Made by a program: the position numbers and the translations under genes. The notes beneath the pieces are model-generated. The model worked only from the letters and a program-made list of their open reading frames with translations, was not told the origin of the DNA and did not search any database. This document shows positions 24,625 through 61,900 of a DNA stretch of 64,000 nt, piece by piece. How positions within the stretch are numbered: the stretch's first letter is position 1; each line of letters starts with the position of its first letter. Source of the DNA: an uncultured delta proteobacterium (GTDB taxonomy: Bacteria > Desulfobacterota > Desulfuromonadia > Desulfuromonadales > JACZKF01); NCBI GenBank assembly GCA_963816395.1, contig CAWFKQ010000007.1:387738-451737 (forward strand). Reading direction: 5' to 3'.

Positions 24625-24628
24625 GACG

Positions 24629-35201: not shown

Positions 35202-35292
35202 CCAGGCTAGAGGCAAGGGGCAAGAGGGGATTATTCCGAGGTTCACGGGTTTGAGGCTTTTTCCTCTAGCCTCTGGCCTCTTGCCTCCTGCC
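35202..35292. repeat. Inverted pair of tandem heptad arrays, unit AGGCNAG (family A)
   Basis: Left arm CCAGGC|TAGAGGC|AAGGGGC|AAGAGGG (35202-35229). Right arm 35263-35292, whose reverse complement is GGCAGG|AGGCAAG|AGGCCAG|AGGCTAG|AGG. The right arm encodes the last 9 codons and stop of cmk. Confidence 0.85.
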
Positions 35293-35946
35293 TTCTACTA
35301 TACGCAACATCTCGGTTAAAACTTCTTCAATCGACATCTTCGTCGAATCAATGACCACGGCGTCGGAGGCCTGGAGCAGGGGGGCATGCTCGCGGGCACT
35401 GTCGGCGGCATCACGTGCCTCGACTTCGGCAATGGTCTGTTCCAGGTCGACAGCCAGACCTTTCGCCCGCAGTTCCTCGTAGCGCCGCCGCCCCCGTTCC
35501 CGGGCGCTGGCGCGGAGAAAAAATTTCACTTCCGCCTGCGGAAAAACAACGGTGCCGATATCCCGGCCTTCGAGAACCACGCCGCCGCCCTCTCCCATCT
35601 GCCGCTGCCGGCGAACCATATCCTGCCGCACCGCCGGGCAGGCGGAGATGCGGGAGGTGAGCAGGCTGTTTTCCGGAGTACGGACGGCGGCGGAGACATC
35701 CTCGCCGTTCAGCAGAACCTGCTCGCCCTGACGGCCGCCGAAGGCGATGTCGAGATTCCGGCAGAGCCGCTCCAAGCCAACGGTATCCGCCGGGTCTATC
35801 CCCTCCCGGCTGGCGGCCAGGGCCACCGCCCGGTACATGGCGCCGGTATCGAGGTTGAGATATCCCAGCCGCTGGGCCAGCAGCTTGCTCAAAGTACTTT
35901 TACCGGCGCCCGAGGGGCCGTCGATGGCAATGATCAATTCGCGCAT
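35266..35946 (-). CDS. cmk: Cytidylate kinase
   Basis: Trimmed to MRELIIAIDGPSGAGKSTLSKLLAQRLGYLNLDTGAMYRAV (ATG 35946). The 10-codon N-terminal extension in the ORF track is a translation of the GGTTCAA repeat. Confidence 0.9.
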   Translation of the reverse strand: MRELIIAIDGPSGAGKSTLSKLLAQRLGYLNLDTGAMYRAVALAASREGIDPADTVGLERLCRNLDIAFGGRQGEQVLLNGEDVSAAVRTPENSLLTSRISACPAVRQDMVRRQRQMGEGGGVVLEGRDIGTVVFPQAEVKFFLRASARERGRRRYEELRAKGLAVDLEQTIAEVEARDAADSAREHAPLLQASDAVVIDSTKMSIEEVLTEMLRIVEGRRQEARG

Positions 35947-35954
35947 GGTAAGTG

Positions 35955-35990
35955 CAGGTTCAAGGTTCAAGTCCAAGGTTCAAGGTAGGG
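35955..35990. repeat. Tandem heptads GGTTCAA (family C) between aroA and cmk
   Basis: caGGTTCAAGGTTCAAGTCCAAGGTTCAAGGTAGGGGG seen directly. Confidence 0.8.
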
Positions 35991-35992
35991 GG

Positions 35993-37282
35993 TCAATGAC
36001 TTATTTTTTCGAGCAGTTCCCAGAAATTGGGAAAGGAAGTGGCGGTGCAGGCGGTGTCCTCAATTTCCACCGAGGCGGCAGCGCGCAGGGCGGCCACGGC
36101 CAGGCTCATGGCAATCCGGTGATCGCCGCCGGAGCTGACGCGGCCGCCGGTGAGGCCATCGACGCCGTTGATAACCATGCCGTCCTCGCGGGCCTCCACC
36201 TGCGCCCCGAGACAGGTGAGACCGGTCGTCACGGCGGCGATCCGGTCGGTCTCCTTGACCCGCAGCTCGCGGGCATCGCGGATGACCGTCGTGCCTTCGG
36301 CGAAAGCGGCGGCGATGCCGATTACCGGCAACTCGTCAATGGCCCGCGGCACCACCGCGCCGCCGATCTCGGTCCCCTTCAGCGAACTGCTCTTCACCAG
36401 GATGTCGGCCACCGGTTCGCCAGCGATCTCCCGCTGATTCAACAGCTCGAGCGAGCCGCCCATCGCCTGGAGGATATCGATAATGCCGCTGCGCGTAGGA
36501 TTCACTCCGACGTTGCGGACCAGCAACTCGGAACCGGGAACGATCAGGGCGGCCACCAGGAAAAAGGCGGCCGAGGAAATATCCCCGGGGACAAAGACAT
36601 CCCGACCCTGCAGGCGCGGGCGCCCGGAAACCGAGACCCCTCCGGCGAAAGGACGGACGTCGGCACCAAACCAGGCCAACATCCGCTCGCTGTGATCGCG
36701 CGACAGATGCGGCTCGCGTACGGTGGTCAGGCCGTCGGCGTAGAGGCCGGCCAGCAGAACGGCAGATTTGACCTGGGCGCTGGCGATCGGCGAGGTGTAA
36801 TCGATGGGACGCAGCGCTCCCCCCTGAATAGCCAGTGGGGCCAGATCTCCCCCTCCCCGGCCGAGAATGCGTGCCCCCATGGCGGTCAGGGGATCGACCA
36901 CCCGCTTCATCGGCCGGCGGCGCAGGTACTGATCCCCGGTAAGAACGGAGAAGAAGGACTGGCCGGCGAGCAGGCCGGTCATCAGGCGGATGGTCGTTCC
37001 CGAATTGCCGCAATCGAGCACATCATCCGGCTCCGCCAGGCCGTTCAGCCCCCGCCCCTGAATCTTCAGCACTCCCCCCGCCAGATCCTCGATGGCGACC
37101 CCCATGGCCCGAAAAGCCTTGAGCGTGGCGTGGTTGTCTTCCCCGTGCAGGAAACCGTGCACCACCGTCGTCCCTTCGGCCAGGGAGCCGAGCATGATCG
37201 AGCGGTGGGAAATCGATTTGTCGCCGGGGACAGCCACCTCCCCGCGCAGAGCACGGACGGGCCGGACGGTACGGGTTTCCAT
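35993..37282 (-). CDS. aroA: 3-phosphoshikimate 1-carboxyvinyltransferase (EPSP synthase)
   Basis: Trimmed to METRTVRPVRALRGEVAVPGDKSISHRSIMLGSLAEG (ATG 37282); LDCGNSGTTIRLMTG motif. Confidence 0.95.
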   Translation of the reverse strand: METRTVRPVRALRGEVAVPGDKSISHRSIMLGSLAEGTTVVHGFLHGEDNHATLKAFRAMGVAIEDLAGGVLKIQGRGLNGLAEPDDVLDCGNSGTTIRLMTGLLAGQSFFSVLTGDQYLRRRPMKRVVDPLTAMGARILGRGGGDLAPLAIQGGALRPIDYTSPIASAQVKSAVLLAGLYADGLTTVREPHLSRDHSERMLAWFGADVRPFAGGVSVSGRPRLQGRDVFVPGDISSAAFFLVAALIVPGSELLVRNVGVNPTRSGIIDILQAMGGSLELLNQREIAGEPVADILVKSSSLKGTEIGGAVVPRAIDELPVIGIAAAFAEGTTVIRDARELRVKETDRIAAVTTGLTCLGAQVEAREDGMVINGVDGLTGGRVSSGGDHRIAMSLAVAALRAAASVEIEDTACTATSFPNFWELLEKISH

Positions 37283-37322
37283 ACAGACCTCGTGAAGACT
37301 CGCTTCACCTCCTGCACCTGTC

Positions 37323-38186
37323 TCACAGGATAGCGTCCCGGCTCTCCTTGGAGCGCAGGAAAAATTCGAACAGGCGCCCGCCGTCGCCGCAGCGGATATC
37401 TTCTTTGAGTTCGCCGAAGAAAGTTTCAAAGCGCTCCATCATCTCCAGCAGGGCGTCACGGTTGGTGGCGGCGATGTCGCGCCACATGGTCGGATCGGAG
37501 GAGGCGATGCGCGTGAAATCGCGGAAACCGCCGGCCGAGTATTCGAGAATATTTTCCTCGTAGCGGTCATACGAGCCAACGGCGTTGACCAGTGAATAGG
37601 CAACCATATGGGGCAGATGACTGATTGCCGCCAAAATGCGATCGTGCTTCTCCACCTTCATCAGCACCACCTCGCTGCCGACGGTCTCCCACATGCGCCG
37701 CACCAGGTCAAGGGCGCTCCCAGCAGTGTGATCGGTGGGGGTGAGGATGCAGCGACGATCCCGGTAAAGGCTGGCAAAGGCAGCCTCGGCGCCGCTTTTC
37801 TCGGTGCCGGCGATGGGATGGCCCGGAACGAAATGGATATCCTGGCGCAGCAGCGGCTCGATGGCACGCACCACCGCCCCCTTGACGCTGCCGCCGTCGG
37901 TAAGGATCGCCCCCGGCTTGAGATGGGGAATGATCGTGGCCGCCACCTCCGCCAGGGACAGCACCGGCGTGGCGAGAAAAATCAGGTCGGCCTCCCGGCA
38001 TCCGGCGACGGCATCGAGGGAGATGCGGTCGATGACCCCCAGCTCGAGGGCTTTTTCCAGATTCGCCCGGCCTCGACCGACGCCGATTACTTCCCCCACC
38101 GCCCCCACTTCTTTCAGGGCCAGGGCCAGGGAGCCGCCAATCAGGCCGACACCGATAATTGCCAGTTTCGGAATATAAAAGCTCAT
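37323..38186 (-). CDS. tyrA: Prephenate dehydrogenase
   Basis: Trimmed to MSFYIPKLAIIGVGLIGGSLALAL (ATG 38186); ..HFVPGHPIAGTEKSG.. Confidence 0.9.
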   Translation of the reverse strand: MSFYIPKLAIIGVGLIGGSLALALKEVGAVGEVIGVGRGRANLEKALELGVIDRISLDAVAGCREADLIFLATPVLSLAEVAATIIPHLKPGAILTDGGSVKGAVVRAIEPLLRQDIHFVPGHPIAGTEKSGAEAAFASLYRDRRCILTPTDHTAGSALDLVRRMWETVGSEVVLMKVEKHDRILAAISHLPHMVAYSLVNAVGSYDRYEENILEYSAGGFRDFTRIASSDPTMWRDIAATNRDALLEMMERFETFFGELKEDIRCGDGGRLFEFFLRSKESRDAIL

Positions 38187-38208
38187 GAATTTTAAATTCT
38201 GAATCCCT

Positions 38209-39285
38209 TCACCTTGCCTTCGGATACGAACCCAGCACCTTGACAAACTGGCAGTAATCCTTCAACTCGGTGATAGCGGTGCGAACGTTTTCTTCTTCAA
38301 TATGCCCGTCCATATCGAGAAAGAAGATATATTCCCAGGCCTTGGTTTTCATCGGCCGGCTCTCGATTTTGGACAGGTTGATGCCGCGTTTGCTGAACGG
38401 TTCCAGCATGCGATAGAGAATGCCCGGCTCGTCGTGGACGCTGAACATCACGGAGGTCTTGTCCCGGCCACTGGGCGCCGGGGAGCGGCGGCCGATGACC
38501 AGAAAACGGGTGAAGTTGCTGGGGTTGTCCTCGATTTTCTCCTTCACCGTCTTCAGGCCGTAGAGGGAGGCTGCCATTTCGCTGGCGATGGCGGCCGCGG
38601 TATCGTCCTCGGCGGCCATCTGCGCCGCCTGGGCGGTGCTGGCGACATCGACCAGGGGAACCTCCGGGAGGTTTTCTTCCAGCCAGTGACGGCATTGAGC
38701 CAGCGGCTGGGGGTGGGAAAGGATCTTTTTCACATCTTCCAGAGAACCGCTGCGGGAGAGGAGGAAATGGGAGATCTGCAGCAGGATTTCGGCGCTGATC
38801 TGCAGGTCGGACTCCATGAACATGTCCAGGGTGTGGGAAACCACCCCTTCCGTGGAGTTCTCCACCGGCACCACGCCGTAATGTACCCGCCCACGTCGGA
38901 CCTCGTCAAAAATTCCGGGGATGCTCTTCTGCGGCACAAGTTGGGCGGAGAAGCCGAACTGCTGCATGGCGGCGACGTGAGTGAAGGTTCCCTGCGGTCC
39001 GAGAAAAGCCACCTTCATGGGCTGTTCGAGGGAGAGGGAGGCGGAGATGATCTCGCGGAAAACCCGGCGGATCGCCTCGGTGGGAAAGGGGCCGGGATTG
39101 CTTTCGGCAAGCCGCTGATAAATCGCCTGCTCCCGGCTGGGAACGTAGAAATCCTGGTTCTTGCCGGCCTTGGCCCGGCCCACCTCGAGGACTACCCGGG
39201 CTCGCCGATTGAGCAGTTCCAAAATCTGGTCGTCGATGGCATCGATCTGCTGCCGCAGTCCGCCGAGCTCTTCTTTTCCGCTCAT
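38209..39285 (-). CDS. pheA: Bifunctional chorismate mutase / prephenate dehydratase (P-protein) with ACT domain
   Basis: Trimmed to MSGKEELGGLRQQIDAIDDQILELLNRRA (ATG 39285). PDT domain (VAFLGPQGTFTH..VPVENSTEGVV) and ACT domain (..TSVMFSVHDEPGILYRML..ESRP). Confidence 0.9.
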   Translation of the reverse strand: MSGKEELGGLRQQIDAIDDQILELLNRRARVVLEVGRAKAGKNQDFYVPSREQAIYQRLAESNPGPFPTEAIRRVFREIISASLSLEQPMKVAFLGPQGTFTHVAAMQQFGFSAQLVPQKSIPGIFDEVRRGRVHYGVVPVENSTEGVVSHTLDMFMESDLQISAEILLQISHFLLSRSGSLEDVKKILSHPQPLAQCRHWLEENLPEVPLVDVASTAQAAQMAAEDDTAAAIASEMAASLYGLKTVKEKIEDNPSNFTRFLVIGRRSPAPSGRDKTSVMFSVHDEPGILYRMLEPFSKRGINLSKIESRPMKTKAWEYIFFLDMDGHIEEENVRTAITELKDYCQFVKVLGSYPKAR

Positions 39286-39478
39286 GGCACTATCCCTTCC
39301 CGCCCCGTTGGAACGGGCAATGTAGCCCAAACCGGCGGAAAAAGCAAGGCGTTCAGGGAGGTAGCGGCACCCTCGGCAAGGCTGTTGCCAGGGGTTTTGG
39401 GAGCGGGAAAAATGGAAATTGCCTTTCCCCGGCTTCCCCGCTAAACTGCATTCCTCATTTCATTTGAAGGAGTGTGGC

Positions 39479-40693
39479 ATGGCGATAGCAGACAAGGTGA
39501 AGGAGTGCATCGAGCGCTCGTCTTGGATTCGTAAGATGTTCGAGGAAGGGGCGCGGCTGCGCCAGTTGCATGGCGAAGAGAACGTCTTCGACTTCACCCT
39601 GGGGAATCCCTCGGTAGAACCGCCGGAGGCGTTTCGCCGCGAGTTGCGGCACTTGGCCGAGCATCCCGTGCCGGGCATGCACCGTTATATGAACAACGCC
39701 GGCTACGAGGAGACGCGCGCGGCGGTCGCAGCGGTTCTGGCCGAGAATTCTGGATGCCCAGTGGCGAGCCGCCATGTGCTCATGACCTGCGGCGCCGGGG
39801 GAGCGCTCAACGTCGCCCTGAAAACGATCCTCAATCCGGGGGAAGAGGTGATCATCCTCGCCCCCTATTTCGTCGAGTATAAATTCTACATCGATAATCA
39901 CGGCGGCGTCAGCCGGGAGGCGTGGACCGACCGGGAGAGCTTCCAGCTCGACATTGCCGCCATCGAGCGGGCGATCGGCCCATCAACTCGAGCTGTCATT
40001 GTCAATTCCCCCAACAACCCGACCGGGGTGATCTACCCGGAGGAGAGCCTGCGGGCCCTAGGAGAGATGCTGGAACGGAAGGGCCGTGAACTCGGCCGGC
40101 AGATTTATGTCATCTCCGACGAACCCTACGCCCGCCTCTCCTACGACGGCCAGCGCGTGCCGGCGGTTTTCTCCTGCATCCGCAACGCAATCGTCGTCAC
40201 TTCCCATTCCAAGGACCTCGCCCTGCCCGGGGAGCGCATCGGCTATGTGGCGGCCAATCCCGCTATGGAGGAGGTCGACCTGTTCCTGGAGGGAGCGGTC
40301 TTCTGCAACCGGGTCCTCGGCTTCGTCAATGCCCCGGCGCTGATGCAGCGCCTGGTGGCCAAGCTCCAGCGGGAGAGCGTCGATATCGGCGAATACCAGC
40401 GCAAACGGGACCTGCTTTACGAACACTTGACCGGCCTCGGTTTCCGCATAGTGAAACCCGGCGGCGGCTTTTATCTCTTCCCGCAATCTCCCCTGCCCGA
40501 CGATATCGCCTTCGTCCGCCTGGCCCAGAAACACAATATTCTGCTGGTGCCGGGGGCGGGTTTCGGCGCCCCGGGATATTTCCGCATTGCCTATTGCGTC
40601 GACGAGGCGACGATCCGCCGCAGTCTGCCGGCATGGGACCGGCTGGCGGCCGAACTCGACCGGGATGGCTTGGAAGGGGAAAGGGCGCGGTGA
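39479..40693 (+). CDS. Class I/II PLP-dependent aminotransferase (aspartate/aromatic type)
   Basis: Start ATG 39479 behind GAAGGAG. ..FTLGNPSVEPP..YMNNAGY..SPNNPTG..VTSHSKDLALPGERIGY..GYFRIAY. Divergent from pheA. Confidence 0.85.
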   Translation: MAIADKVKECIERSSWIRKMFEEGARLRQLHGEENVFDFTLGNPSVEPPEAFRRELRHLAEHPVPGMHRYMNNAGYEETRAAVAAVLAENSGCPVASRHVLMTCGAGGALNVALKTILNPGEEVIILAPYFVEYKFYIDNHGGVSREAWTDRESFQLDIAAIERAIGPSTRAVIVNSPNNPTGVIYPEESLRALGEMLERKGRELGRQIYVISDEPYARLSYDGQRVPAVFSCIRNAIVVTSHSKDLALPGERIGYVAANPAMEEVDLFLEGAVFCNRVLGFVNAPALMQRLVAKLQRESVDIGEYQRKRDLLYEHLTGLGFRIVKPGGGFYLFPQSPLPDDIAFVRLAQKHNILLVPGAGFGAPGYFRIAYCVDEATIRRSLPAWDRLAAELDRDGLEGERAR

Positions 40694-40813
40694 GCCTTGA
40701 TTTTCGCTGATGGCCCGGGCGACAGGACCTGCGGTTCGGGCGCAGAATGCAGCCTCATGCGCCCGGGGTCGGGATTCCCCGCTGTTGAGCGTAGCCAGGG
40801 TCGGAAGGGGATG

Positions 40814-42536
40814 TTATTGATCGGCTGACCGGCAGTCCCGGATCCTCAATTGTACCGATCGAGTACCGCGCCAGTCATTGAAGGCCGGGGTGAAAAGAAT
40901 ATCGATATTTCCCCGCAATTCGGGCGCCCGGTCGGCCATGCCGAAAGCGATGCAGGGGAAACTGCAGCCGCCCTGGCGGGCGGTGAAGCGCAGATGATTT
41001 TCACCGACCGGGCATACCTGGCGCGCCTGCACTCCCAGGGCGATGAAGGACGGTTCCGGGTTGCCGGCGCCGAAGGGCGCAAGACCGGAGATTTCCCGCA
41101 CCACCTCCGGAGTTATTTCTTCGAACAGCACCTCTCCATCGTGCAGCAGCCGCGGGAGCAGATCCTCCTCCCTGAGCACCTCCCGGGCCACTTGTTCGAA
41201 GGCGGCGGCAAAGACGCTGAGATTTCTTTCGGCGATGGTCAGGCCGGCGGCGCATTCGTGGCCGCCGAAGCCCTCCAGGTGCCCGCCACAACGCTGCAGG
41301 GCATGAAAGAGGTGGAGGCCGGCGATGGAACGTGCCGATCCCTTGCCAATGCCGTTCTGCAGGGCAATGAGAATGGTCGGCCGATGGTAACGTTCCACCA
41401 GGCGGCTGGCGACGATGCCGATGACGCCGGGATGCCAGCGGGAGTCGGCAAGAACGATGGCATACTCTCCCCCCTCTCCCTGTTCCAGTCGCTCCACGGC
41501 CTGTCTCAGAGTCTCCTCCTCGAACCGCTGCCGCTGCCGGTTAAAAAGATCGAGCTGCTCGGCAATGGCCTGCGCCGGGGCGGCTTCGCCGGCGAGCATA
41601 AGTTCCACCCCCAGCGCGGCATCTTCCAACCGGCCGGCGGCATTGAGACGAGGGGCAAGGCGAAAGGCTACGGCGCCGCAGTTGACCTCCTTTACTGCCG
41701 CCACCTTTTTCAGCGCCTCCAGGCCGGGTCTTTCCGAACGGGCGATGACCTTCAGCCCGACCCGAGTCAGTAAACGGTTGACCCCGGTCAGAGGCACCAC
41801 ATCGGCAATCGTGCCCAGGGCGACCAGGTCGAGGGAACGGCGCAGGTCCGGCTCGTCCCTCCCACCGAAGGCGCCCTTCTCCCGCAAGACCTTGCGCAGG
41901 GCGACCAGGAGAAAAAAGGCCACTCCCACCCCTGCCAGACTCCTGTAGGGAAAGGCGCTCCCCGCTAGACGCGGGGTGCACGATGGCGCAGGCCGGCGGC
42001 AGGCGATCAGGAGGCTCATGGTGGTCGGTGATGATGAGGTCGAGGTCCAGGGAAGCGGCCAGGCTGGCTTCGGCAGCGGCGGAGATACCGCAATCGACGG
42101 AGAGGATAACCCGGGCTCCGGCCGCCGCAGCCTGCTTCAGGGCAGCGGCGGAAAGGCCGTAGCCGTCGCGTAGCCGCAGGGGAATATGATATTCGACACG
42201 GGCGCCAAAAGCCCGCAGGTTTTCCACCAGGAGGGCCGCGCCGGTGATGCCGTCGACGTCATAGTCGCCGTGCACCGAGATCAATTCACCATTGGCAATG
42301 GCGTCGGCCAGGCGGTTGGCAGCCGGGGCGGCTCCCGGCAGGAGGAAGGGATCAGGGAGAGCCGCCAGCCGCCCGTCAAGAAAGGCAAGCCCCTCGGCAA
42401 CGGAACGGATGCCGCGGAAAAGAAGCGTCCGCCCGGTCAGGGCGGACAGCCCCAGACCGGCGCAGAGGGGAGCGAGCTGTTGCAGAACCGCCGCATCCCC
42501 CCGCCACAGCCAGTGCCGGCCGCTTACCGGCTGCAT
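40814..42536 (-). pseudogene. recJ: Single-stranded-DNA-specific exonuclease RecJ, +1 frameshift in a C4 run
   Basis: Starts MQPVSGRHWLW (ATG 42536). ..VHGDYDVDGITGAALL..VDCGISA..ITDHHEPPDRLPPACAIVHP then the frame shifts at 41973-41976 into ORF 40814..42019 (RLAGSAFPYRSLAGVGVAFFLLVAL...). 1722 nt if repaired. Confidence 0.85.
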
Positions 42537-42576
42537 ATGTTTTCCGCCCCGGCGGCCGGCCGCTGCGGGCAGCCGG

Positions 42577-43172
42577 TCATTTTGCCGGCTGGGCGGCCGG
42601 GGCAGGCGCCGACGAGCTCGCTGGGTCGGGTGGGTGCGGATGAATTCGAGCTCAGCGCGAATCTGATCGGCGCCGGGACCGCTCGGGTTCAACTGCAGAA
42701 AGCGGGTCCAGACCTCGGCCGCCTTGGGAAAGTCGTTCAGATCATACCGGTAGACCACTCCCAGGTTGAACAGGCTCTGCAGATGGGCGGGATTGATCTT
42801 GCCGGCCTTGGTGAAATTGGCGATCGCCCGATCGAACCAGCCGAGACGGCGGAACATGATCCCCTGATCGGTGAGCAGGTCCGGATCATTGGGGTCCATC
42901 TCCAGCGCCTTGCCGTAAGCCTCGACCGCTTTCGCCGCCTGATCCGAATCGAAATAGCTGTTCCCCAACTGGACCCAGGCATTGCGGTTACCGGGATCCT
43001 TAGCCACAATCCCCTCCAGGATGCGGATCTTATCCTGGTAATTGACCGCCGGCGCCGCCGTTCCGGCGGGCGCCGCACTTTCCTTCCCCCGGTCCCCCTT
43101 GCTGACCAGAATACCGATCAGCAGGCCGACGACCAAGGCGATGCCGACGATCAGAACCGTCTCTTTTTTCAT
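42577..43172 (-). pseudogene. Membrane-anchored TPR-repeat protein, apparent 1-nt deletion near the 3' end
   Basis: MKKETVLIVGIALVVGLLIGILV, then TPR repeats. As given it reads through into recJ (ORF 41541..43172). The adjacent frame gives the tail ...IRTHP(D)PASSSAPAPAAQPAK*, with stop at 42577, if one C is restored near 42625-42635. Confidence 0.6.
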
Positions 43173-43173
43173 C

Positions 43174-44118: not shown

Positions 44119-44128
44119 CGGCCTTTCC

Positions 44129-45727: not shown

Positions 45728-45803
45728 GGCTGAATGAACTCCTTTCGGGAATTTCCGGGCGGCCGGCGCTTACCGGCAGCCGAAAACGGACGCCTGGCGG
45801 CGG

Positions 45804-46133: not shown

Positions 46134-46225
46134 TGGTGACCTCCTTCAGGTGGTGAATACTTCCGATGCTGTAAATAGCAGGCGACAGGCAAACATGTCA
46201 TTATATCCCATCTTCCCGGCCGTTG

Positions 46226-47410
<1,185 letters not shown>

Positions 47411-47414
<4 letters not shown>

Positions 47415-48711: not shown

Positions 48712-48745
48712 TCTCCCGGGTCTCCTGAATTTTCATTAGTTTTTC

Positions 48746-53159: not shown

Positions 53160-53178
53160 TCCCGGGCCCTCCGGTTCT

Positions 53179-55020
53179 TTACCGTCTCGCCGGCCCTCCT
53201 CCCCTCCCCCGCTCGCCGTCTTTCCCCGCCCGATAGCCCAGCAGCAAAGACGCTGCAGCTTCCCGTCCGCAGGCGCGAAGGGCCGCCAGAACATCCTGCC
53301 GATGCTCGGGGAGATGCCAGAGCAGGAGGGCCTTCTGCAGGCGCCGCTCCCGTGGCGAGCGGGGCACGTGCAGTGCTTCACCGGTCATTGGATCGCGGCC
53401 GGTGAAATAGATGCAGGTGGCAAGGGTACCGGGAGTGGGAGTGAATTCCTGTACCTGTTCCACCCGCAGGCCATGCCTGCGGAGGAACAGGGCCGTCTCC
53501 ACCATATCGCCCAGAGTGCTGCCGGGGTGGGCGGCGATCAGGTAAGGGACGACCGCCTGCCGCCGCCCCAGGCGCTGGCTGCGTTCCCTGAACCATTGCA
53601 GAAAAGTTTCGAAGACAGGAGCACCTGGCTTGCGCATGATCTTCGTCACTCCCTCGCAGAGCGCCTCCGGCGCCACCTTGAGCAGACCGCCGACATGGCT
53701 CTCGAGCAGATCCTCGAAATACTCCTGCTGATGCTCGAACAGATCGAAACGAACCCCCGAGGCGACGAAAACATGGCGCACGCCCTGCCGCTGGCGGATC
53801 TTTCGCAGCAGGCGCACCGCCCGGCGATCAGCGGTCAGCAGATGCCGGCAGGGCCTGGGGAAAAGGCAGCCGCTGCGCCGGCAACGGTCGCGGGCGGCCG
53901 GACGACCACAGGCAAGACCGTACATATTGGCAGTCGGACCGCCGACATCGCTGATAGTGCCGCGAAAGCCGGGCTGCCGGGCCATCCGATCGACCTCGGC
54001 GAGAACCGATCCCTCCGAGCGGGACTGCACGAATTTCCCCTGGTGATGGGTGATTGCGCAGAAGGCGCAGCCGCCGAAACAACCCCGGTGGGTGGTGACG
54101 GAGAAGCGGATCTGTTCAAAGGCAGGAATCGGCTCACGGTAGGCGGGATGCGGCAAGCGGGTGAATGGGAGGTGATAAATACGGTCCATTTCCGTCTCGC
54201 CGAGCGGCAGCTGAGGCGGGTTGACCACCACCTGGCGGGTGCCGTGCATCTGGACCAGCGGCCGCCCGCAGAAGGGGTTGGCTTCGGCGGCGGCGAGACG
54301 GAAGGCAGCATTGAAGGCCTCGGGGTCGGCTGCCGCTTCCTCATAGCCGGGAAGCCGCACCGCTCCCGCCGGCGCCTGGGCCGCCAGGTGGGCGGTGCCC
54401 CGGATTCCGCGCATCGCCGCTGGGGCCTCGCCGCCGGCAGCACGCCGGGCAACCTCCAGCAGGGGCGCCTCTCCCATGCCGAAAACGAGGAGGTCGGCCT
54501 TGCTGTCGACCAGCACCGAGCGGCGCACCGCATCATCCCAGAAATCGTAGTGGGCCAGACGCCGCAGACTCGCCTCGATGCCCCCGATGATCACCGGCAG
54601 CCCCTTGAAGGCCCCCTTGAGAGCCGCGGTATAGGCGATCACCGCCCGGTTCGGCCGGGCGCCGGCGCGGCCGCCAGGGGTATAGGCGTCGTCACGGCGC
54701 ACCTTGCGGGCGGCGGTGTAATGATTGACCATGGAATCCATGGCCCCGGCGGAAAGGGCGGCGAACAGCCGCGGGCGCCCCATGACCCGCAGCGCCTCGG
54801 GATCGCGCCAGTCGGGTTGGGCCAGGATTCCCACCCGATAGCCCTCTGCTTCCAGCAGCCGCGCCAGCAGAGGAACGCCGAAGGCGGGATGGTCGATATA
54901 GGCATCCCCGGAGAGAAAGAGGATATCGAGTTCTTCCCAGCCGCGGCGCACCATTTCTGCGCGGGTGGTAGGGAGAAATAAAATCTGTCTCTCCTCGTTC
55001 AGCGGCTGCGATCCCGGCAC
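53179..55020 (-). CDS. ygiQ: YgiQ-family (UPF0313) radical SAM protein
   Basis: 613 aa: ..[39 protein letters not shown].. parallels E. coli YgiQ. CxxxCxxC region [14 protein letters not shown] start. Confidence 0.85.
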
Positions 55021-55193
55021 AGGTGGGCAATTGAGCGGTCGTAGGTCCGCTCCCCTTCAGGAGTAAAGAAACAGCCGGGGATCTCCCCCCGGTTCCGATG
55101 GTAAGTCACGCACTTGCAGCAGCTCCCCCGCTTGTCGCACGACAGCTGGGTGCAGGTACAGTGCTCCTTGGTGGTCGCTGAGATACATTCCAT
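54999..55193 (-). CDS. Small cysteine-rich protein (C-x-C...CC-x-C motif family)
   Basis: [43 protein letters not shown]... ATG 55193 lies behind GAGG. Overlaps the ygiQ start by 22 nt. Confidence 0.55.
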
Positions 55194-55210
55194 TGGCAAA
55201 CCTCAAAAGG

Positions 55211-55270
55211 CGGTGAGATAGTGAGATGGCGAGATAGAGTTACTACTTACTACCTCACTGTCTCACTACA
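55211..55270. repeat. Inverted heptad arrays, unit GTGAGAT / TTACTAC (family B)
   Basis: cGGTGAGATAGTGAGATGGCGAGATAGAG | TTACTACTTACTACCTCACTGTCTCACTAC. The outer GTGAGA[T/C]AGTGAG segments are complementary. Confidence 0.8.
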
Positions 55271-55277
55271 TACTGCA

Positions 55278-56315
55278 TTACGGAAATACCGGCAGTGCTT
55301 CCAGCCCCGTTGTCTCCGGCAGCCCGAGAAGGATATTGAGATTCTGCACCGCCTGCCCCGCCGCCCCCTTGACCAGGTTATCGATGGCGGCGACCACAAT
55401 TACCCGGCCGGTACGCGGGTCGCTGACCACCCCCAGATCACAGTAATTGCTTCCCCGCACGCAGGCCACGTTGGGCAGCTTTCCCTGCGGAAGGACACGG
55501 ACGAAGGGTTCCTGCCGGTAATATTCCCGGTAGAGCTGAAGCAGCTCGGCAGTGTCCTTCGGCGCCTGCAAACCGGCATAGCAGGTGGAAAGAATCCCCC
55601 GATTGACCGGCAGCAGGTGCGGGGTGAAGCTGACCACCACCGGCTCCCCGGCGAGAGTGGAGAGCGTCTGCTCGATTTCCGGAGTATGCCGGTGGCTGCC
55701 GACTCCGTAGGCCTTGAAGCCCTCGTTCACCTCGCAGAACAGGCTATCCACCTTGGCGGAACGGCCGGCTCCGCTGGTCCCCGATTTGCTGTCGATGACC
55801 AGGGAGGCTAGCTCGACCTGCCGGTGGCTGAGCAAGGGGGCGAGGGCGAGGGCGACGCTGGTCGGGTAGCAGCCGGGATTGGCCACCAGCCGGGCACCCC
55901 GGAGCCGCTCCCGGAAAAGCTCCGGCAGTCCGTAAACAGCCTCAGGGAGCAATTCGGGGCTGCCGTGCGGACCATACCAGGCGGCATAGACCTCGGGGTC
56001 GCGCAGCCGGTAATCGGCCGAGAGGTCGATCACCCGGCGCCCGGCCTGCAGCAAGGGGGGAACGACCTGCATGGCGGCCTGATGAGGCAGAGCGGTGAAG
56101 ATCACCTCGGCGCGTTCGGCGATCGCCGCCGGTTCGGCGGCTTCGCAGACCAGATCGATCCGCCCGAAAAGGGAGGGGAAGAGCGCGGCGACCGGCTCGC
56201 CGGCGTTCTGCCGGGCGGTTACGCAGGTAACCTCGACCTGCGGGTGACCCGCCAGCAGGCGGAGCAATTCGGCGCCGGTGTAGCCGCTGGCGCCCATGAC
56301 GGCGACTCTGACCAT
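55278..56315 (-). CDS. argC: N-acetyl-gamma-glutamyl-phosphate reductase
   Basis: Trimmed to [21 protein letters not shown] (ATG 56315); ..NPGCYPTS.. active-site Cys. Confidence 0.95.
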
Positions 56316-56335
56316 GTATTTCCTCCTCATAGCAG

Positions 56336-56364
56336 AAAAGGGAAACCCGAGGGTTTCCCTTTTC
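56336..56364 (-). terminator. Intrinsic terminator after rpsI
   Basis: Minus strand GAAAAGGGAAACCC-ucg-GGGUUUCCCUUUUCUGCU. Confidence 0.8.
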
Positions 56365-56405
56365 CTTGCTGACTTTCGCTGCCGGGATCCGGCGGCCCGG
56401 AGCGA

Positions 56406-56798
56406 TTAACGCTTGGAGAACTGGAAGCTCCGACGGGCGGCGGCCCGGCCGTACTTCTTGCGTTCCTTGGCCCGGCTGTCGCGGGTAATGAACCCGGCCT
56501 TTTTCAGAAGCCCCCGCAACTGAACGTCCACCTCCAGCAGGGCCTTGGTGATGCCGTGCTTGATCGCCCCCGCCTGCCCGGAAGGGCCGCCACCGGCAAC
56601 ATTGACGATAATATCGAATTTGCCGATATTCTGCGTCAGTTCCAGAGGCTGGCGGATGACCATTTTGGAGGTTTCCCGCCCGAAATACTCGTCGATGGAA
56701 CGCTTGTTGACGGTGATGTTCCCCGCCCCCGGTTTCAGCCATACCCGAGCCACCGACGTTTTCCTTCTTCCGGTCGCGTAAAATTTCTCTTCGGCCAT
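56406..56798 (-). CDS. rpsI: 30S ribosomal protein S9
   Basis: 130 aa: ..[15 protein letters not shown].. and C-terminal ..[17 protein letters not shown]. Confidence 0.95.
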
Positions 56799-56821
56799 CT
56801 CTTGTTTGTCTCCTGATTACT

Positions 56822-57250
56822 TTAGAAGGTCAGCGGCTTGGGCTGCTGGGCGGCATGCGGATGCTCGGGCCCGGCATAGACCTTGAGTTTACTGAACATC
56901 TGGCGGCCCAGTTTGTTCTTGGGCAGCATGCCCTTGACCGCCTTCTGGATCAACTGCTCCGGCTTCTTCTCCAGAAGCTTGCCGGCGGTAATCGACTTGA
57001 GACCGCCCGGGAATCCGGAATGGTGATGATACATCTTATCCGCCAGTTTGTTCCCGGTCAGCTTCACCTTGGCGGCATTCAGAACGATGACGAAATCCCC
57101 GGCATCGACGCTGGGGGTGTAAATGGGCTTGTGCTTGCCCCGCAGAACATGCGCAATCTGAGCGGCGGCCCGGCCGAGGACCTGCCCTTCCAGATCGACA
57201 ATGTACCAGTTTTTCTTGATATTTGACGGTTTGGCAACTTGGGTGCTCAT
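56822..57250 (-). CDS. rplM: 50S ribosomal protein L13
   Basis: Trimmed to [29 protein letters not shown] (ATG 57250); 142 aa. Confidence 0.95.
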
Positions 57251-57330
57251 GAATTTCCTCTCTGGTTCATAATCTGCGATTGCAACGGGGCTCACAGAAG
57301 CTGAGAAATTAGCCGAAGGCAGTCGGGATG

Positions 57331-57810
57331 TCAAGAATTTTTTTGAATGAGACCGGTTTCAGCCCGGCCTGGTTTCAGGCTGAGGACCGGGCAGGGAGCA
57401 TGCTGGACGACCCGCTCCGCCGTGCTGCCGATCAGCAGGTGGGAAAGCCCGGTCCGACCATGGGTGCCGATAACGATGAGCTGGAAATGCTCCTCTTCGG
57501 CCAGGCGGCAGATTTCACGGAAAGGGATCCCGGCCACCGCCCGTCCCTCCAGGTGCAGCCCGGGGATCGCCTGCCGCCGGCGCTCAACCTCCTCCGCCAA
57601 TTCCGCCGCCGCCTCCCGCAGCCGCCCGTCGAGCGCCTCGGTCGGCTCGCCGCCGAGGGTAGCAAAAGTCTCCACTTCCCCGCTGGGGACCACGTGCAGC
57701 AGGCAATAACTCGCTTCGAACCACTCCCGCAAGCCAAAGGCGAATTCCAGCGTCTCCCGGCTGGCGGCAGAAAAATCGGTGGGGACCAGGATCTTCAGGG
57801 GTTTTCTCAT
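57331..57810 (-). CDS. Universal stress protein (UspA family)
   Basis: [17 protein letters not shown]...[33 protein letters not shown]. Confidence 0.9.
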
Positions 57811-57913
57811 TATCGCCTCCGCCGCTCTCCATTATGGCGCGAACGGCGGCGGATGCAAGGCGGGGAAACAAACGGAGGAACCCGTGAGGTGCTTCTGTCC
57901 TACCTCACTACCT

Positions 57914-58658
57914 TCAGCTGCCTTCGTACCAGACCTCCATCAGGCACAGCCCCTGCGGCGGCGCGGTGATGCCGGCCGCTTCCCGCCGCCCGCCCTGCAG
58001 CAGTTCGGGGATATCGGTCCAGGGGCGTTTCCCCAGGCCGATCTCGACCAGGGTCCCGACCATTACCCGCACCATGTGGCGCAGGAAACCGTCCCCTTTG
58101 ACATCCAGGTGCAGCAGTTCCCCTTCCCGATTGCAGGTCGACCGAGAATATCTCCCGCACCGTCTCGCGGGCATCGCAGCCGGCGGCGCGAAAGGCGGCG
58201 AAATCGTGACGGCCGGCAAAAGCCGCCGCCCCCTGCATCATCGCCGGCAGGTCGAGGGGGGCGCGCAGGTGCCAGGAGGTGCGCGCCGCCAGCGGTGAGC
58301 GTACCGCTGCGTTGTAGATCGTGTAGCGGTACCATTTCCCCCGGGCACTGAAGCGGGCATGAAAGCCAGGGGGCGCTTCGGCCGCCTCGCGCACCGCCAC
58401 CTCCGCCGGCAGCAGGCGGTTGATCCCCTCACGAAAGGCCGCCAGGGGGAGGGCGCCGGCGGTGCGGAAATGCACCGTCATGCCCCGGGCATGCACCCCG
58501 GCGTCGGTTCGGCCGGAAGAAGCCAACCGGATTTTTTCCCCGGTCAGTCGGGCCAGTGCTTCTTCCACCACCTCCTGCACGGAAAGGCCATTGGCCTGCA
58601 GCTGCCAGCCGGCGAAACGGGTACCGTCGAATTCCACGACCAGCCGAATGGTTCTCAT
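57914..58658 (-). pseudogene. truA: tRNA pseudouridine(38-40) synthase TruA, +1 frameshift
   Basis: MRTIRLVVEFDGTRFAGWQLQ...SGRTDAGVHA...REIFSVDLQ then continues in ORF 57914..58219 (REGELLHLDVKGDGFLRHMVRVMVGTLVEIG...). Extra base near 58128-58133; 744 nt if repaired. The 445-aa ORF 57900..59237 is an artefact. Confidence 0.9.
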
Positions 58659-59440
58659 CGCAGCACGCCGAAAAGCAGCAGCAGACCGACCAGGCCGACG
58701 ACGCTGAGCAGACGGTCGGTCCGCCGCGCTCGCAGAACCGGCAGTTCCCCCTCCCCCCAGACGTCCTCGCCGCGCGCCGCGGCCTGCGCCAGGGCATCGG
58801 CGCGGTCGACCAGCCGCAGCAGCAGCGGCGTGATCATCACCGCCAGCGCCCGGGCTCTGGCCGGCAGCGGCCCGCTGCCCGGATCGTTCCCAGCCTTCCG
58901 GGCGGCCGCCAGCTGGCCGGCGGCCTCCTCGCGAAAAATGGGGATGAACTGCAGCACCAGCAGGAACAGGAGCACCGTCTCGCGCACCGGCAGGCAGCGG
59001 CGCAGGGGCGCCAGCAGCACCGACAGGGCGGCGGCAAGCTCCCGTGGGGCGGTGGTCAGGGTGAGCAGGGAGGAGAAGGTGACCGCCAGCACCAGCTGCC
59101 CGTCCACCAGCAGACCCTGCGTCAATCCGTCCCGGGAGAGCCAGATCTGGCCGAAGAGGGTGCGGCCGGGAGAGAAGAGCAGGTGCAGCAGCAGGGTAAA
59201 GAGGAGCAGCCAGCGCAAGGCCCGCAGGCCCCGCCACCAGAGACGAGCGGGGATCTGGCCGAGGAGCAGGAGCAGGCCGGCGAACAGGGCCAGCACCGCC
59301 AGGCGGAGCGGGGCGGCGCCAGCAAAGGCGGCGATCACCAGCAGCGGCAGGCCGGCCAGCTTCAGCCGCGGATCGAGCCGGTGCAGGAAGGAATCCGCCG
59401 GGTGGTAGCGCCCGAGAGTAAGATCGTCGAGAAAGGACAT
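58655..59440 (-). CDS. ecfT: ECF-transporter transmembrane (T) component, EcfT/CbiQ family
   Basis: 261 aa: MSFLDDLTLGRYHPADSFLHRLDPRLKL... and the ARGxxxxxG-type signature (..AQAAARGEDV..). ATGA overlap with truA. Confidence 0.8.
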   Translation of the reverse strand: MSFLDDLTLGRYHPADSFLHRLDPRLKLAGLPLLVIAAFAGAAPLRLAVLALFAGLLLLLGQIPARLWWRGLRALRWLLLFTLLLHLLFSPGRTLFGQIWLSRDGLTQGLLVDGQLVLAVTFSSLLTLTTAPRELAAALSVLLAPLRRCLPVRETVLLFLLVLQFIPIFREEAAGQLAAARKAGNDPGSGPLPARARALAVMITPLLLRLVDRADALAQAAARGEDVWGEGELPVLRARRTDRLLSVVGLVGLLLLFGVLR

Positions 59441-59448
59441 GGGGAGAT

Positions 59449-59579
59449 TAGGCCAGAGGCTAGAGGCAAGGGAATCGGGGACTAGAGGCCAGAGGCTGGA
59501 GGCAAGAGGTTACAAGCAGAACCATCGGCCAGGATTTATGGCTTTCCTCTAGCCTCTAGCCCCTTGCCTCTTGCCTGCC
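59449..59579. repeat. Inverted pair of heptad arrays, family A (AGGCNAG), between asd and ecfT
   Basis: Left arm GGCCAG|AGGCTAG|AGGCAAG|GGAATCG|GGGACTAG|AGGCCAG|AGGCTGG|AGGCAAG|AGGTTAC|AAGC (59451-59514). Right arm 59546-59579, whose reverse complement is GGCAGGC|AAGAGGC|AAGGGGC|TAGAGGC|TAGAGG. Confidence 0.85.
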
Positions 59580-59581
59580 GT

Positions 59582-60601
59582 TTACAAATACTTTTCCGCG
59601 AGAATTTCGGCGATCTGCACGGCGTTGGTGGCGGCGCCCTTGCGCAGGTTGTCGGCACAGATCCACAAGTTGAGACCGTTGGCAATCGTCCCATCCTCGC
59701 GGACCCGGCCGACCAGAACCTGGTCCTGGCCGGCGGCATCGACCGGCATCGGGTAGAGCCCGTTCGCCGGATCATCGACCAGGTTGACGCCGGCAGCGCC
59801 GTCAAGCAGCTCGCGCGCCCTGGCGGCGGTAATCTTCGTCACCGTTTCGACATTGACCGATTCGCTGTGGCCATAGAAGACCGGCACGCGAACGGTGGTG
59901 GCGGTCACCCCGATGTTGTCGTCCGCCAGGATCTTGCGGGTCTCATTGACCATTTTCATCTCTTCCCCGGTGTAGCCGTTTTCCAGGAAGGAGTCGATCT
60001 GCGGCAGGCAGTTGAAGGCGATCTGATGCGGGTAGACCTTTGGCGCGGAAGGCCGGCCGTTGAGTAGTTCACCGGCCTGGATGCGCAACTCATCGATGGC
60101 TTTCTGCCCGGTTCCGGAAACCGCCTGGTAGGTAGAGACCACGATGCGCCGGATGCCGCCGAAGTCGTGGAGGGGTTTGAGCGCCACCACCAGCTGGATG
60201 GTTGAGCAGTTGGGATTGGCGATAATTCCCCGGTTGACATAGCGGGCGATTTCCTGGGGGTTGACCTCGGGGACGACCAGTGGAACATCCGGATCCAGGC
60301 GCCAGGCGCTCGAGTTGTCAATGCACACCGCCCCGGCAGCGGCGGCGATCGGGCAGAATTCCCGGCTGCGCTCGCCGCCGGCGGAGAAAAGGGCGATATC
60401 GATCCCCTGAAAGGAGTCCCTGGCGAGAGTCTGCACCAGGATATCCTCTCCGCGGAACTCCAGGGAATTCCCCTCGGAGCGCTCGGAGGCGAGCAGACGC
60501 AGTTCCTTGACCGGGAACTCCCGTTCCTCCAGCACCCGCAGCATTTCGTTGCCAACAGCGCCGGTGGCGCCGACCACGGCGATGTTCCACTGTTTGCTCA
60601 T
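59582..60601 (-). CDS. asd: Aspartate-semialdehyde dehydrogenase, short (Gram-positive/archaeal-like) type
   Basis: Trimmed to MSKQWNIAVVGATGAVGNEMLRVL (ATG 60601); ..IIANPNCSTIQLVVAL.. active site; 339 aa. Confidence 0.9.
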   Translation of the reverse strand: MSKQWNIAVVGATGAVGNEMLRVLEEREFPVKELRLLASERSEGNSLEFRGEDILVQTLARDSFQGIDIALFSAGGERSREFCPIAAAAGAVCIDNSSAWRLDPDVPLVVPEVNPQEIARYVNRGIIANPNCSTIQLVVALKPLHDFGGIRRIVVSTYQAVSGTGQKAIDELRIQAGELLNGRPSAPKVYPHQIAFNCLPQIDSFLENGYTGEEMKMVNETRKILADDNIGVTATTVRVPVFYGHSESVNVETVTKITAARARELLDGAAGVNLVDDPANGLYPMPVDAAGQDQVLVGRVREDGTIANGLNLWICADNLRKGAATNAVQIAEILAEKYL

Positions 60602-60735
60602 ACCTTGAACCCCTTTAACGCAAAGACGCAGAGTAACAGGCAAGGCGCAAAGCAAACCGAAGCCAGCCTGATCCTTTGCGCCTTTCTTTTTACCTTAGCG
60701 CCTTTGCGTTGAAACAAGGTCACTTAAGGTCACTT
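60602..60735. repeat. Composite inverted/direct repeat filling the spacer between the two asd genes
   Basis: AACGCAAAG..GGCGCAAAG (60617-60652) faces CTTTGCGCC..CTTTGCGTT (60674-60710). Tandem AAGGTCACTT x2 at 60715-60734, and ACCTTGAAC at 60602 matches the family C unit. Confidence 0.7.
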
Positions 60736-61827
60736 CTCCAGCAGGATGCGCAGCATCCGCCGCAGCGGTTCGGCGGCTCCCCAGAGCAACTGATCGCCGC
60801 AGGTGAAGGCGGAGAGGTACTGAGGCCCCATTTTCATCTTGCGCACCCGGCCGACGGGCACGTCCAGGGCGCCGGAGACGGCGGCCGGGGTGAGCCGGGC
60901 GAGGGAATCGGCCTTGGTATTGGGGACCAGACTGACCCACGGGTTGTCATTGGCGATCAGGTCTTCCAGGTCGGCGATCGGCACGTCCCGCTTCAGCTTG
61001 ATAGTCAACGCCTGGCTGTGACAGCGCATGGCGCCGACCCGCACGCAGATGCCGTCGACAGGAATCGGGGCCGCGGTACCGAGGATCTTGTTGGTTTCGG
61101 CGTATCCCTTCCACTCCTCACGGCTCTGGCCGTCCTCGACCTCGCGGTCAATCCAGGGAAGGACGCTGCCGGCGAGGGGAAAACCGAACTCCTTCTGCGG
61201 CAGGGTCTCGCCGCGCAGAGTGGCGGTGACCTGCCGGTCGATTTCGAGGATAGCCGAACCCGGATCCCTGAGCAGGCCGGCCACCGAACCGTGCAGCACC
61301 CCCATCTGGGCGAGCAGTTCGCGCATATTGGGAGCACCGGCGCCGCTGGCAGCCTGGTAGGTCATGGAGGTGAGCCACTCGACCAGACCGGCGCGGAACA
61401 GGCCGCCGAGCCCCATGAGCATCAGGCTGACGGTGCAGTTGCCGCCGATGAAATCTTTCTGCCCTCTGGCGAGGGCGGCATCGATGACATTGCGGTTGAC
61501 CGGATCGAGGATGATGACGGCATCCTTCTCCATGCGCAGAGTGCTGGCCGCGTCTATCCAGTACCCCCGCCAGCCGGCCCGGCGCAGTTCCGGATGGACG
61601 GCCTTGGTGTAGTCGCCCCCCTGGCAGGTGATGATCACGTCCAGTTTCTTGAGTTCCGCGAGGTCGGAAGCATCCTTCAGGGTCCCGGCGTTCATGGGGG
61701 CTGGCGCCCCGGCCTGGGAAGTGGAAAAGAAGACCGGCTCGACCCCGGCCAGATCGTTCTCCTCCTGCATGCGCTGCAGGAGAACCGAGCCGACCATACC
61801 CCGCCAACCGACAAGTCCGACTTTCAT
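60730..61827 (-). CDS. asd: Aspartate-semialdehyde dehydrogenase, long (E. coli) type
   Basis: [23 protein letters not shown]...[17 protein letters not shown]...[17 protein letters not shown] is colinear by eye with E. coli Asd. Confidence 0.9.
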
Positions 61828-61847
61828 ACGAGGTTCCCTTTAAATAA

Positions 61848-61900
61848 GGTAGTGAGATAGGGAGGTAGTGAGATAGAAAGGGCTTTTAACTACCTACACC
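61848..61900. repeat. Family B repeat: GGTAGTGAGATAG x2 plus partial inverted copy
   Basis: GGTAGTGAGATAGggaGGTAGTGAGATAGaaagggcttttaaCTACCTACac. A related GGTAGTGAGGTAGG (minus-strand sense) occurs at 57899-57912, overlapping the truA stop. Confidence 0.8.

Follow-up and report, generated by a model that had tools for sequence, protein, structure and literature searches.

What are the short tandem units of about 7 nt that occupy whole spacers between core housekeeping genes in the 64-kb stretch of a Desulfuromonadales metagenome-assembled genome (MAG) analyzed here—hereafter the window, by which we mean the entire stretch—while other spacers of the same operons carry ordinary features? The answer that we favor, and regard as moderately probable, is that these arrays are heptanucleotide long simple sequence repeats (LSSRs), driven by slippage in permissive spacers, which repeats would behave like repetitive extragenic palindromic (REP) elements, as RNA hairpins, wherever an array is paired with its complement.

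Tandem heptanucleotides in the spacers of the window

We counted the rows returned by Tandem Repeats Finder (TRF) with at least three copies across the 64 kb, and took 100 dinucleotide-preserving shuffles as the null. Seven period-7 tandem arrays were present in the window, whereas the shuffles averaged 0.17 and never exceeded 2. The dimer of the family A unit AGGCNAG, AGGCNAGRGGCNAG, searched with at most one mismatch, gave 16 matches versus the 1.2 expected, 15 of which were inside three spacers at 35.2, 47.4, and 59.5 kb; the family B string GGTAGTGAGRTAG matched three times against an expectation of 0.04; and the junction AGAGGTTACAAGC, which is not part of the repeating unit, matched twice against 0.02 (47361-47373 on the minus strand and 59505-59517 on the plus strand), the copies of this 13-mer at 47.36 and 59.5 kb being oppositely oriented relative to transcription. 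In addition, a 34-nt arm of family A occurs at both 35260-35293 and 59543-59576, with 91% identity between the copies. The excess of units and junctions, together with that shared arm, indicates that the families are real, copy-related, and more than low complexity, in agreement with the view of an earlier, sequence-only reading that the ~7-nt units form related, non-random families sharing longer strings.

At least four unrelated unit families (AGGCNAG, GTGAGAT, GGTTCAA, and GCGCAAAG) coexist within 30 kb of the window. The arrays are head-to-tail copies of a unit in the 5-11-nt range that defines the LSSRs, are longer than composition predicts, and are concentrated in non-coding DNA, as the 15 of 16 family A matches located in spacers exemplify. 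The spacers concerned, with the TRF rows that they contain, are the following:

35204-35293, cmk/ispH: family A (AGGCNAG) inverted pair, arms 35204-35227 and 35263-35293, 83% complementary; TRF period-7 arrays at 35204-35227 and 35263-35287
35955-35990, aroA/cmk: family C direct array, 4.6 copies of GGTTCAA on the plus strand, CCUUGAA in the mRNA; TRF period-7 array at 35956-35986
47352-47413, queA/tgt: family A direct arrays filling the spacer, purine-rich in the mRNA sense, containing AGAGGTTACAAGC (47361-47373, minus strand)
55211-55270, argC/DUF6485: family B (GTGAGAT) inverted pair, hairpin 55218-55269; TRF period-8 array at 55213-55237; the DUF6485 gene is at 54999-55199
57872-57912, truA/usp: GGTAGTGAGGTAG (57900-57912, minus strand), a lone family B unit that overlaps with the truA stop; small hairpins are also present; no tandem array
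59449-59579, asd/ecfT: family A multi-array, purine-rich blocks 59450-59470 and 59478-59506, junction AGAGGTTACAAGC at 59505-59517, complementary block 59546-59576; TRF period-7 arrays at 59450-59509 and 59546-59576
60602-60735, asd2/asd: composite hairpin of nested GCGCAAAG/CTTTGCGC-type inverted units plus AAGGTCACTT twice (60716-60735, a TRF 10-nt direct repeat)
61848-61900, leuB/asd2: family B, GGTAGTGAGATAG twice (61848-61860 and 61864-61876), with the partial complement CTACCTAC (61890-61897)

All the genes that flank these spacers are core housekeeping genes on the minus strand, arranged in three runs:

pheA-tyrA-aroA-cmk-ispH-rpsA (minus strand)
queA-tgt-yajC-secD (minus strand)
leuB-asd2-asd-ecfT-truA-usp-rplM-rpsI-argC-DUF6485-radical SAM (minus strand)

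The sequence-only reading had counted at least eight array-filled spacers, and the arrays were at the coordinates that it gave, while the stretch at 57897-57915 proved to be a single family B unit; likewise, an echo of family C that it had noticed at 60602-60610 amounted to one 9-mer, at the level of chance. In certain instances the arrays extend into the genes: the 35263-35293 arm overlaps the 3' end of cmk, whose final ~9 codons and TAG stop (35266-35268) consist of array sequence, and the queA TAG stop (47411-47413) forms part of a family A unit.

A 36-nt internal direct repeat was also seen at asd/ecfT (59432-59503), with copies 75% identical and the first copy seemingly taking in the region of the ecfT start codon. 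This repeat may be the relic of a tandem duplication, but the match is weak outside the heptamer units, and at 75% identity we judged it too weak to argue for in-place growth. Outside the range 35202-61900 covered by the sequence-only reading, two further 33-nt heptamer arrays of the TTCTTCC type, at 24291-24323 and 24979-25011, are in direct orientation and 88% identical, and bracket a toxin-antitoxin pair of the Phd/ParE type (24325-24907, minus strand), which cassette might either have inserted into an array or have been mobilized by recombination between arrays.

Predicted hairpins and the same spacers in relatives

The minimum free energy (MFE) of each of the eight spacers was compared with that of shuffles, the resulting structures being predictions. 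Four of the eight folded better than their shuffles:

cmk/ispH: MFE -42.8 kcal/mol, z -4.4 (-4.44)
argC/DUF6485: MFE -27.7 kcal/mol, z -3.3 (-3.30)
asd/ecfT: MFE -66.3 kcal/mol, z -4.8 (-4.84)
asd2/asd: MFE -58.3 kcal/mol, z -5.7 (-5.74)

No better fold than in the shuffles was obtained for aroA/cmk (z +0.71), queA/tgt (z -0.37), leuB/asd2 (z +0.13), or truA/usp (z -1.57), the family C array of aroA/cmk being without an inverted partner and without structure. The expectation of strong hairpins from inverted arrays in four spacers, with no U-tract, was thus borne out (z -3.3 to -5.7), whereas as a property of the array spacers in general folding applied to only half of them. In the four folding spacers, the base of the hairpin is 0-11 nt from the upstream stop and the 3' arm finishes 0-18 nt before the next ATG. 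Accordingly, the cmk/ispH hairpin stops 6 nt short of the ispH ATG (35197); the asd/ecfT hairpin, for which several alternative pairing registers are possible, begins 5 nt past the asd stop and finishes 10 nt before the ecfT ATG; and the predicted pairing in asd2/asd runs from the asd2 stop codon up to the base preceding the asd ATG, so that in the predicted fold the asd ribosome-binding region would be sequestered.

The tails that follow the array hairpins—GGAAAU, AAUCUCCCC, and AUG—contain no U-tract, and consensus scans for intrinsic terminators and sigma-70 promoters gave no match on the array spacers. Against Rfam 15, nothing in the spacers reached the gathering threshold, the only hits being sub-threshold hairpin models of eukaryotic microRNA precursors, on both strands; a riboswitch or a known small RNA was consequently rejected. 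The folding energy was similar for the two strands, which similarity means that the mRNA strand is not singled out, and for the same reason we dropped a G-U asymmetry as an indication of RNA-specific selection.

For the comparison of orthologous spacers we used L081, L203, and L205 (82-83% Asd identity) and L001-L005 (71-78%), the closest Asd relative, P0002 (85%), being left out of this set. In the syntenic L081 and L203, the orthologous spacers contained tandem-unit elements built from different units, both copy number and unit differing at 82-83% Asd identity. The arrays of L081 consist of GTGAGGC, GACACGGA, GGGGGATTT, and GGCTCCT. In L203, argC/DUF6485 contains eleven copies of GGTGAAC plus the complement, versus the three GTGAGAT of the window; asd/ecfT contains direct GGCGAGC/GGCAAGA and CCCGGGA arrays, versus the inverted AGGCNAG arrays of the window; truA/usp contains TTTTGAG/CTCAAAA; and leuB/asd2 and asd2/asd are occupied by GTAG REPs of the type found at 23.5 kb of the window. 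In L205 (82%) and L001-L005 the place is taken by simple hairpins or by terminators, or the spacer is of 20 nt. The orthologous spacers were occupied by other elements rather than being clean empty sites, and the comparison as a whole, together with that of the near-identical assemblies below, indicates that the arrays are heritable, remodeled at genus-level divergence, interchangeable with REPs or hairpins, dispensable, and not hypervariable.

Two features of this region were recorded in the same relatives. A terminator-like hairpin in rpsI/argC (GGAAAAGGGAAACCC...GGGTTTCCCTTTTC; window 56335-56375, L203 6750-6790, L205 13600-13630) is, unlike the array spacers, conserved in sequence at 82-83% identity. 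Furthermore, asd2 (60730-61827), which in the window has array elements at both sides, codes for a second aspartate-semialdehyde dehydrogenase, of the gamma type, and lies between leuB and asd, the latter being of the asd_B type; the leuB-asd2-asd order holds in the clade of the window (L081, L203, L205), leuB directly adjoins asd in L001, and no asd2 was detected in L002-L005.

Distribution, arm polarity, and known repeat systems

The TRF survey was extended to 1.3 Mb around asd in 83 sequences from 80 diverse genomes, again with at least three copies and with gene calls from a crude open-reading-frame (ORF) heuristic. Period 7 accounted for 70 rows, versus 24, 26, and 12 for periods 6, 8, and 9, respectively, and for only 2 rows in the shuffles. 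Whereas 11% of random positions lay beyond stop-free stretches of at least 120 amino acids, 41 of 67 period-7 arrays did so, and a third of those 67 had an inverted partner within 200 nt. One genome can carry many units, as L007, L048, and L073 do, and the presence of many unit families per genome argues against a single cognate binding factor. According to the crude gene calls, and hence approximately, the spacers with arrays were co-directional, divergent, and convergent in a 96/29/27 distribution, which is roughly proportional, and single arrays showed no bias with respect to transcription, 28 being purine-rich and 21 pyrimidine-rich in the mRNA sense.

A metagenome scan with GGCNAGAGGCNAGAGGC returned at least 120 stretches on contigs of 32% to 73% G+C, most of them with extended arrays; among the matches listed, these arrays were often beside others of CCACTAA, AATTCAA, or CAGTTAT (which is equivalent to TAACTGA). 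AGAGGCN arrays were seen across that range of G+C, and CTCCTGA/ATTCTGA with its complement was seen in L081 (11160-11185), L073 (10989-11067), L059 (1055-1138), and class 3 of Geobacter metallireducens. Since the latter unit occurs in several Desulfuromonadales-like genera and AGAGGCN is so widely spread, unit sequences recur far beyond one genome.

The inverted pairs proved to have a polarity. The sequence-only reading had presented the succession of purine-rich array, loop, and complement as the order in the mRNA sense; an inverted repeat, nevertheless, reads alike on both strands, so that having the purine-rich array first is a property independent of the strand. Among TRF-defined inverted pairs of period 7-9, 54 had the purine-rich array first (R..Y) versus 10 with the pyrimidine-rich array first (Y..R; p = 2e-8), and 28 versus 9 when family A was removed. 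Exact-seed inverted repeats overlapping arrays gave 36 R..Y versus 5 Y..R, while in the control, formed by inverted repeats not overlapping arrays, the figures were 84 and 62. The published class-3 pairs of G. metallireducens (PMC2700814, Additional file 9) were R..Y in 8 of 8.

Counterparts of the arrays are on record, contrary to what the sequence-only reading had implied. According to the survey of Mrazek, Guo, and Shah 2007, as conveyed in PMC4679880 and PMC4692102, heptanucleotide repeats are the most abundant among the prokaryotic simple repeats of 5-11 nt, and polymerase slippage was proposed as their origin. The window arrays resemble those LSSRs in the prevalence of tandem 7-nt units over other periods, in the intergenic location, and in being scattered across phyla; in the parts of that survey so conveyed, the arrays are handled singly, and inverted pairing, stop-to-start hairpins, and arm polarity are not addressed. 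Within the same order, Aklujkar et al. 2009 (PMC2700814) listed in G. metallireducens "predicted global regulator binding sites" of classes 1-3, consisting of opposite-strand pairs of 3-5 tandem 7-9-nt units (GTTGCTYN, TCTCCGTS, and MTYCTGA), along with a family of four GGACCGG, and suggested the binding of IHF or HU as a hypothesis. Those sites share with the window arrays the opposite-strand pairing, the variable spacing, the location between housekeeping genes (such as proB/proA), the multicopy and genome-specific character, and, in the class-3 pairs, the R..Y polarity, and their CTCCTGA/ATTCTGA unit is also in L081, L073, and L059; the units of the window (AGGCNAG, GTGAGAT, GGTTCAA, and GCGCAAAG) are not the same. 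Paired sites of this type were present in four spacers of the window, and family A at three loci.

Outside that order, Rehm et al. 2015 (PMC4692102) described intergenic heptamer arrays of GGGAATC in Xanthomonas and of GGGGA(T/C)T in Nostoc, the former located between the same gene pairs in two species with differing length and sequence, and in some instances forming convergent inverted pairs. The likeness to the window is in the intergenic heptamers and in the inverted pairs able to form stem-loops, while those units contain G-tracts with G-quadruplex potential and most window units cannot form such a structure, although L081 does have GGGGGATTT units. The TAACTGA arrays of Beggiatoaceae and cyanobacteria (MacGregor 2015; PMC4679880) abut start codons, and the binding of S1, a cold-shock protein, or CsrA to the transcript was proposed for them; in contrast to the inverted pairs of the window, nearly all are direct and strongly forward-oriented.

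Heptamers known as short tandemly repeated repetitive (STRR) sequences were reportedly described in cyanobacteria by Mazel and colleagues in 1990. Both these and the TAACTGA arrays resemble the present ones as intergenic tandem heptamers, often right before start codons without an evident Shine-Dalgarno (SD) sequence, and in the juxtaposition of different heptamer arrays, which the metagenome contigs L084, L101, L196, and L200 also show. STRRs in the strict sense are units of heterocystous cyanobacteria, from which the window arrays differ in taxon—the host being, according to its Asd homologues, a Desulfuromonadales relative—and in unit sequence, the architecture being alike. In view of these documented LSSR- and STRR-type heptamers, inverted pairs included, the window arrays are no new kind of element; the instance is an ordinary one, which adds a Desulfuromonadales MAG to the lineages with heptanucleotide-filled spacers.

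REPs and bacterial interspersed mosaic elements (BIMEs) are likewise dispersed, genome-specific palindromes located between cistrons or in 3' untranslated regions and forming RNA hairpins, and the REPs of L203 occupy the array spacers of the window. They are single imperfect 20-40-nt palindromes with a 5' GTAG and are linked to REP-associated tyrosine transposases (RAYTs), whereas the window arrays are without such a palindrome, are built from tandem units, and thus do not belong to that class. Genuine GTAG REPs were nonetheless seen in the window, beside a RAYT-like gene:

23498-23524, GTAG REP
23552-23572, GTAG REP
23595-23621, GTAG REP
23861-23888, GTAG REP, a perfect palindrome inside the Y1_Tnp gene
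23625-24200, minus strand, Y1_Tnp (RAYT-like) gene adjoining the REPs

Because of that internal palindrome, and because its match to the Pfam model is confined to the C-terminal half, the Y1_Tnp gene may be disrupted. The distinction that the sequence-only reading had drawn between the arrays and both the REPs at 23.5 kb and CRISPR stood on the grounds of unit size, lack of spacers, and lack of the GTAG palindrome: CRISPR was rejected, since the units are of 7-8 nt and contiguous as opposed to repeats of 23-50 nt with unique spacers of similar length. Integron attC sites were rejected as well, the genes being core and their synteny conserved across genera; inspection of the asd2/asd element gave no match to the attC core sites (GTTRRRY/RYYYAAC), no search having been made for intI.

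Proposed origin and role of the arrays

The identity of the arrays, their statistics, the geometry of the predicted folds, the turnover, and the wide distribution are established here, the generative mechanism and the role at the RNA level being proposals. We propose that the arrays would originate in place, and be remodeled there, by slippage during replication or by unequal exchange, with occasional copying of entire arms from spacer to spacer, and that their retention between genes is probably due to the period of 7, which 3 does not divide, and to the stop codons within the units. If one spacer contains both an array and its complement, the transcript would fold into a long, imperfect, multi-register hairpin extending from the stop codon to the next start. 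To judge from that geometry, the hairpin would most likely be a generic intercistronic punctuation, as REP elements are, which might impede 3' exonucleases and keep the next start region covered until the terminating ribosome opens the base. Hairpin-mediated coupling or stabilization is therefore plausible, whereas a role of the paired arrays as a sequence-specific regulatory site is unlikely. Taken together, the evidence argues against a sequence-specific switch, a miniature inverted-repeat transposable element (MITE), and a contingency locus.

Certain observations weigh against this proposal. The non-unit junction AGAGGTTACAAGC shared between loci shows copy-and-paste from one locus to another, which slippage alone leaves unexplained. 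The asd/ecfT spacer of L205 is of only 20 nt, so that a hairpin at that place is dispensable. No array indels were seen between paired assemblies with identities of 99.4%, 99.9%, and 100%, though few arrays were covered, which constancy means that slippage is slow at best. Finally, the 54:10 polarity is predicted neither by neutral slippage nor by hairpin thermodynamics.

The polarity deserves separate consideration. Avoidance of Rho and its rut sites was disfavored as its cause, single arrays having no orientation bias (28 vs. 21), and since thermodynamics, neutral slippage, and Rho avoidance alike do not predict it, the polarity would point to a dedicated mechanism. Candidate sources are a directional process—fold-back synthesis, or the overgrowth of bidirectional-terminator seeds—or else an oriented function, whether a U-tract-independent bidirectional pausing or attenuation or a stop-to-start translational coupling. 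We leave a small place for the idea that the inverted heptamer-array pairs constitute a distinct, cross-phylum class of intergenic elements in which the polarity is fixed, the complement following the G/purine-rich array on either strand. The rule itself is the one possibly new point here, as we did not find it stated in PMC2700814, PMC4692102, or PMC4679880, and as a simple, testable regularity it is the feature worth following up.

Among the rival explanations, the binding of an abundant nucleic-acid-binding protein—IHF or HU on the DNA; S1, a cold-shock protein, or CsrA on the RNA—would make of the arrays a global regulatory network, as was proposed in PMC2700814 and PMC4679880. Periodic units would fit cooperative binding or binding by a multimer, the arrays are immediately beside start codons, with ecfT and cmk lacking an obvious SD, the CTCCTGA/ATTCTGA unit recurs across genera (G. 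metallireducens, L073, L059, and L081), and the fixed polarity of the pairs might mirror an oriented complex. Nevertheless, the at least four unrelated families in 30 kb, with far more in other genomes, the swapping of units within the same spacer at 82-83% identity or their substitution by REPs or plain hairpins, the absence of an orientation bias of single arrays with respect to transcription, and the lack of any candidate protein linked to the arrays make this explanation unlikely. We consider it distinctly unlikely that the arrays are non-autonomous mobile elements, either MITE-like or REP/BIME-like, with terminal inverted repeats of tandem units and a transposase encoded elsewhere. Dispersed copies do share the order of their arms as well as non-unit junctions, and the core between the inverted arms varies; GTAG REPs and a RAYT (Y1_Tnp) gene are at 23.5-24.2 kb and two Y1_Tnp genes are in L081; REPs take the same spacers in L203; and the toxin-antitoxin cassette is between direct array copies. 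Yet inspection of the ends of the four hairpin elements revealed no target-site duplication, half of the spacers have only direct arrays, the arm lengths and registers are irregular, and the arrays are without the GTAG palindrome that RAYTs recognize. Within a single family, the R..Y rule would follow from a fixed polarity of the ends, but a polarity that holds over unrelated units and phyla cannot result from the common descent of one element.

A dedicated device for translational coupling or attenuation, in which the hairpin would hide the downstream ribosome-binding site or the GAGG units of family A until opened by the terminating ribosome, thus setting the stoichiometry of the operon, we regard as improbable in that specialized form. 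In its favor, the predicted pairing in asd2/asd reaches from the stop codon right up to the ATG, the cmk/ispH 5' arm lies inside cmk so that translation must melt it, and in four of four folding spacers the hairpin base is 0-11 nt from the stop and 0-18 nt from the start. On the opposite side, four of the eight spacers are without a hairpin, REPs, terminators, or a spacer of 20 nt suffice in the relatives, the structures are predicted only, and any element that fills a short spacer will automatically have a stop-to-start geometry. The occlusion of SD-like GAGG, as suggested by the sequence-only reading, fits family A, the other families being without an SD-like unit. That reading had also entertained contingency tracts prone to slippage; that the arrays would be such phase-variation tracts, switching neighboring genes on and off, we consider very remote: the units are short, tandem, and beside start codons, and the copy number varies at 82-83% identity, but the covered arrays have no indels at 99.4%, 99.9%, and 100% identity, the neighbors are essential housekeeping genes, and degenerate units slow slippage.

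To return to the slippage-driven LSSRs that we favor, these repeats are widespread, and a genetically tractable relative, G. metallireducens, exhibits the same architecture, while the predicted hairpins that bridge stop and start in essential operons are clean test cases for coupling or stabilization. Apart from the arrays, two tandem riboswitch aptamers of the c-di-GMP-I-GGC family were observed upstream of a long minus-strand ORF, both above the gathering score:

2481-2571, minus strand, c-di-GMP-I-GGC aptamer, 68.6 bits
2700-2813, minus strand, c-di-GMP-I-GGC aptamer, 66 bits

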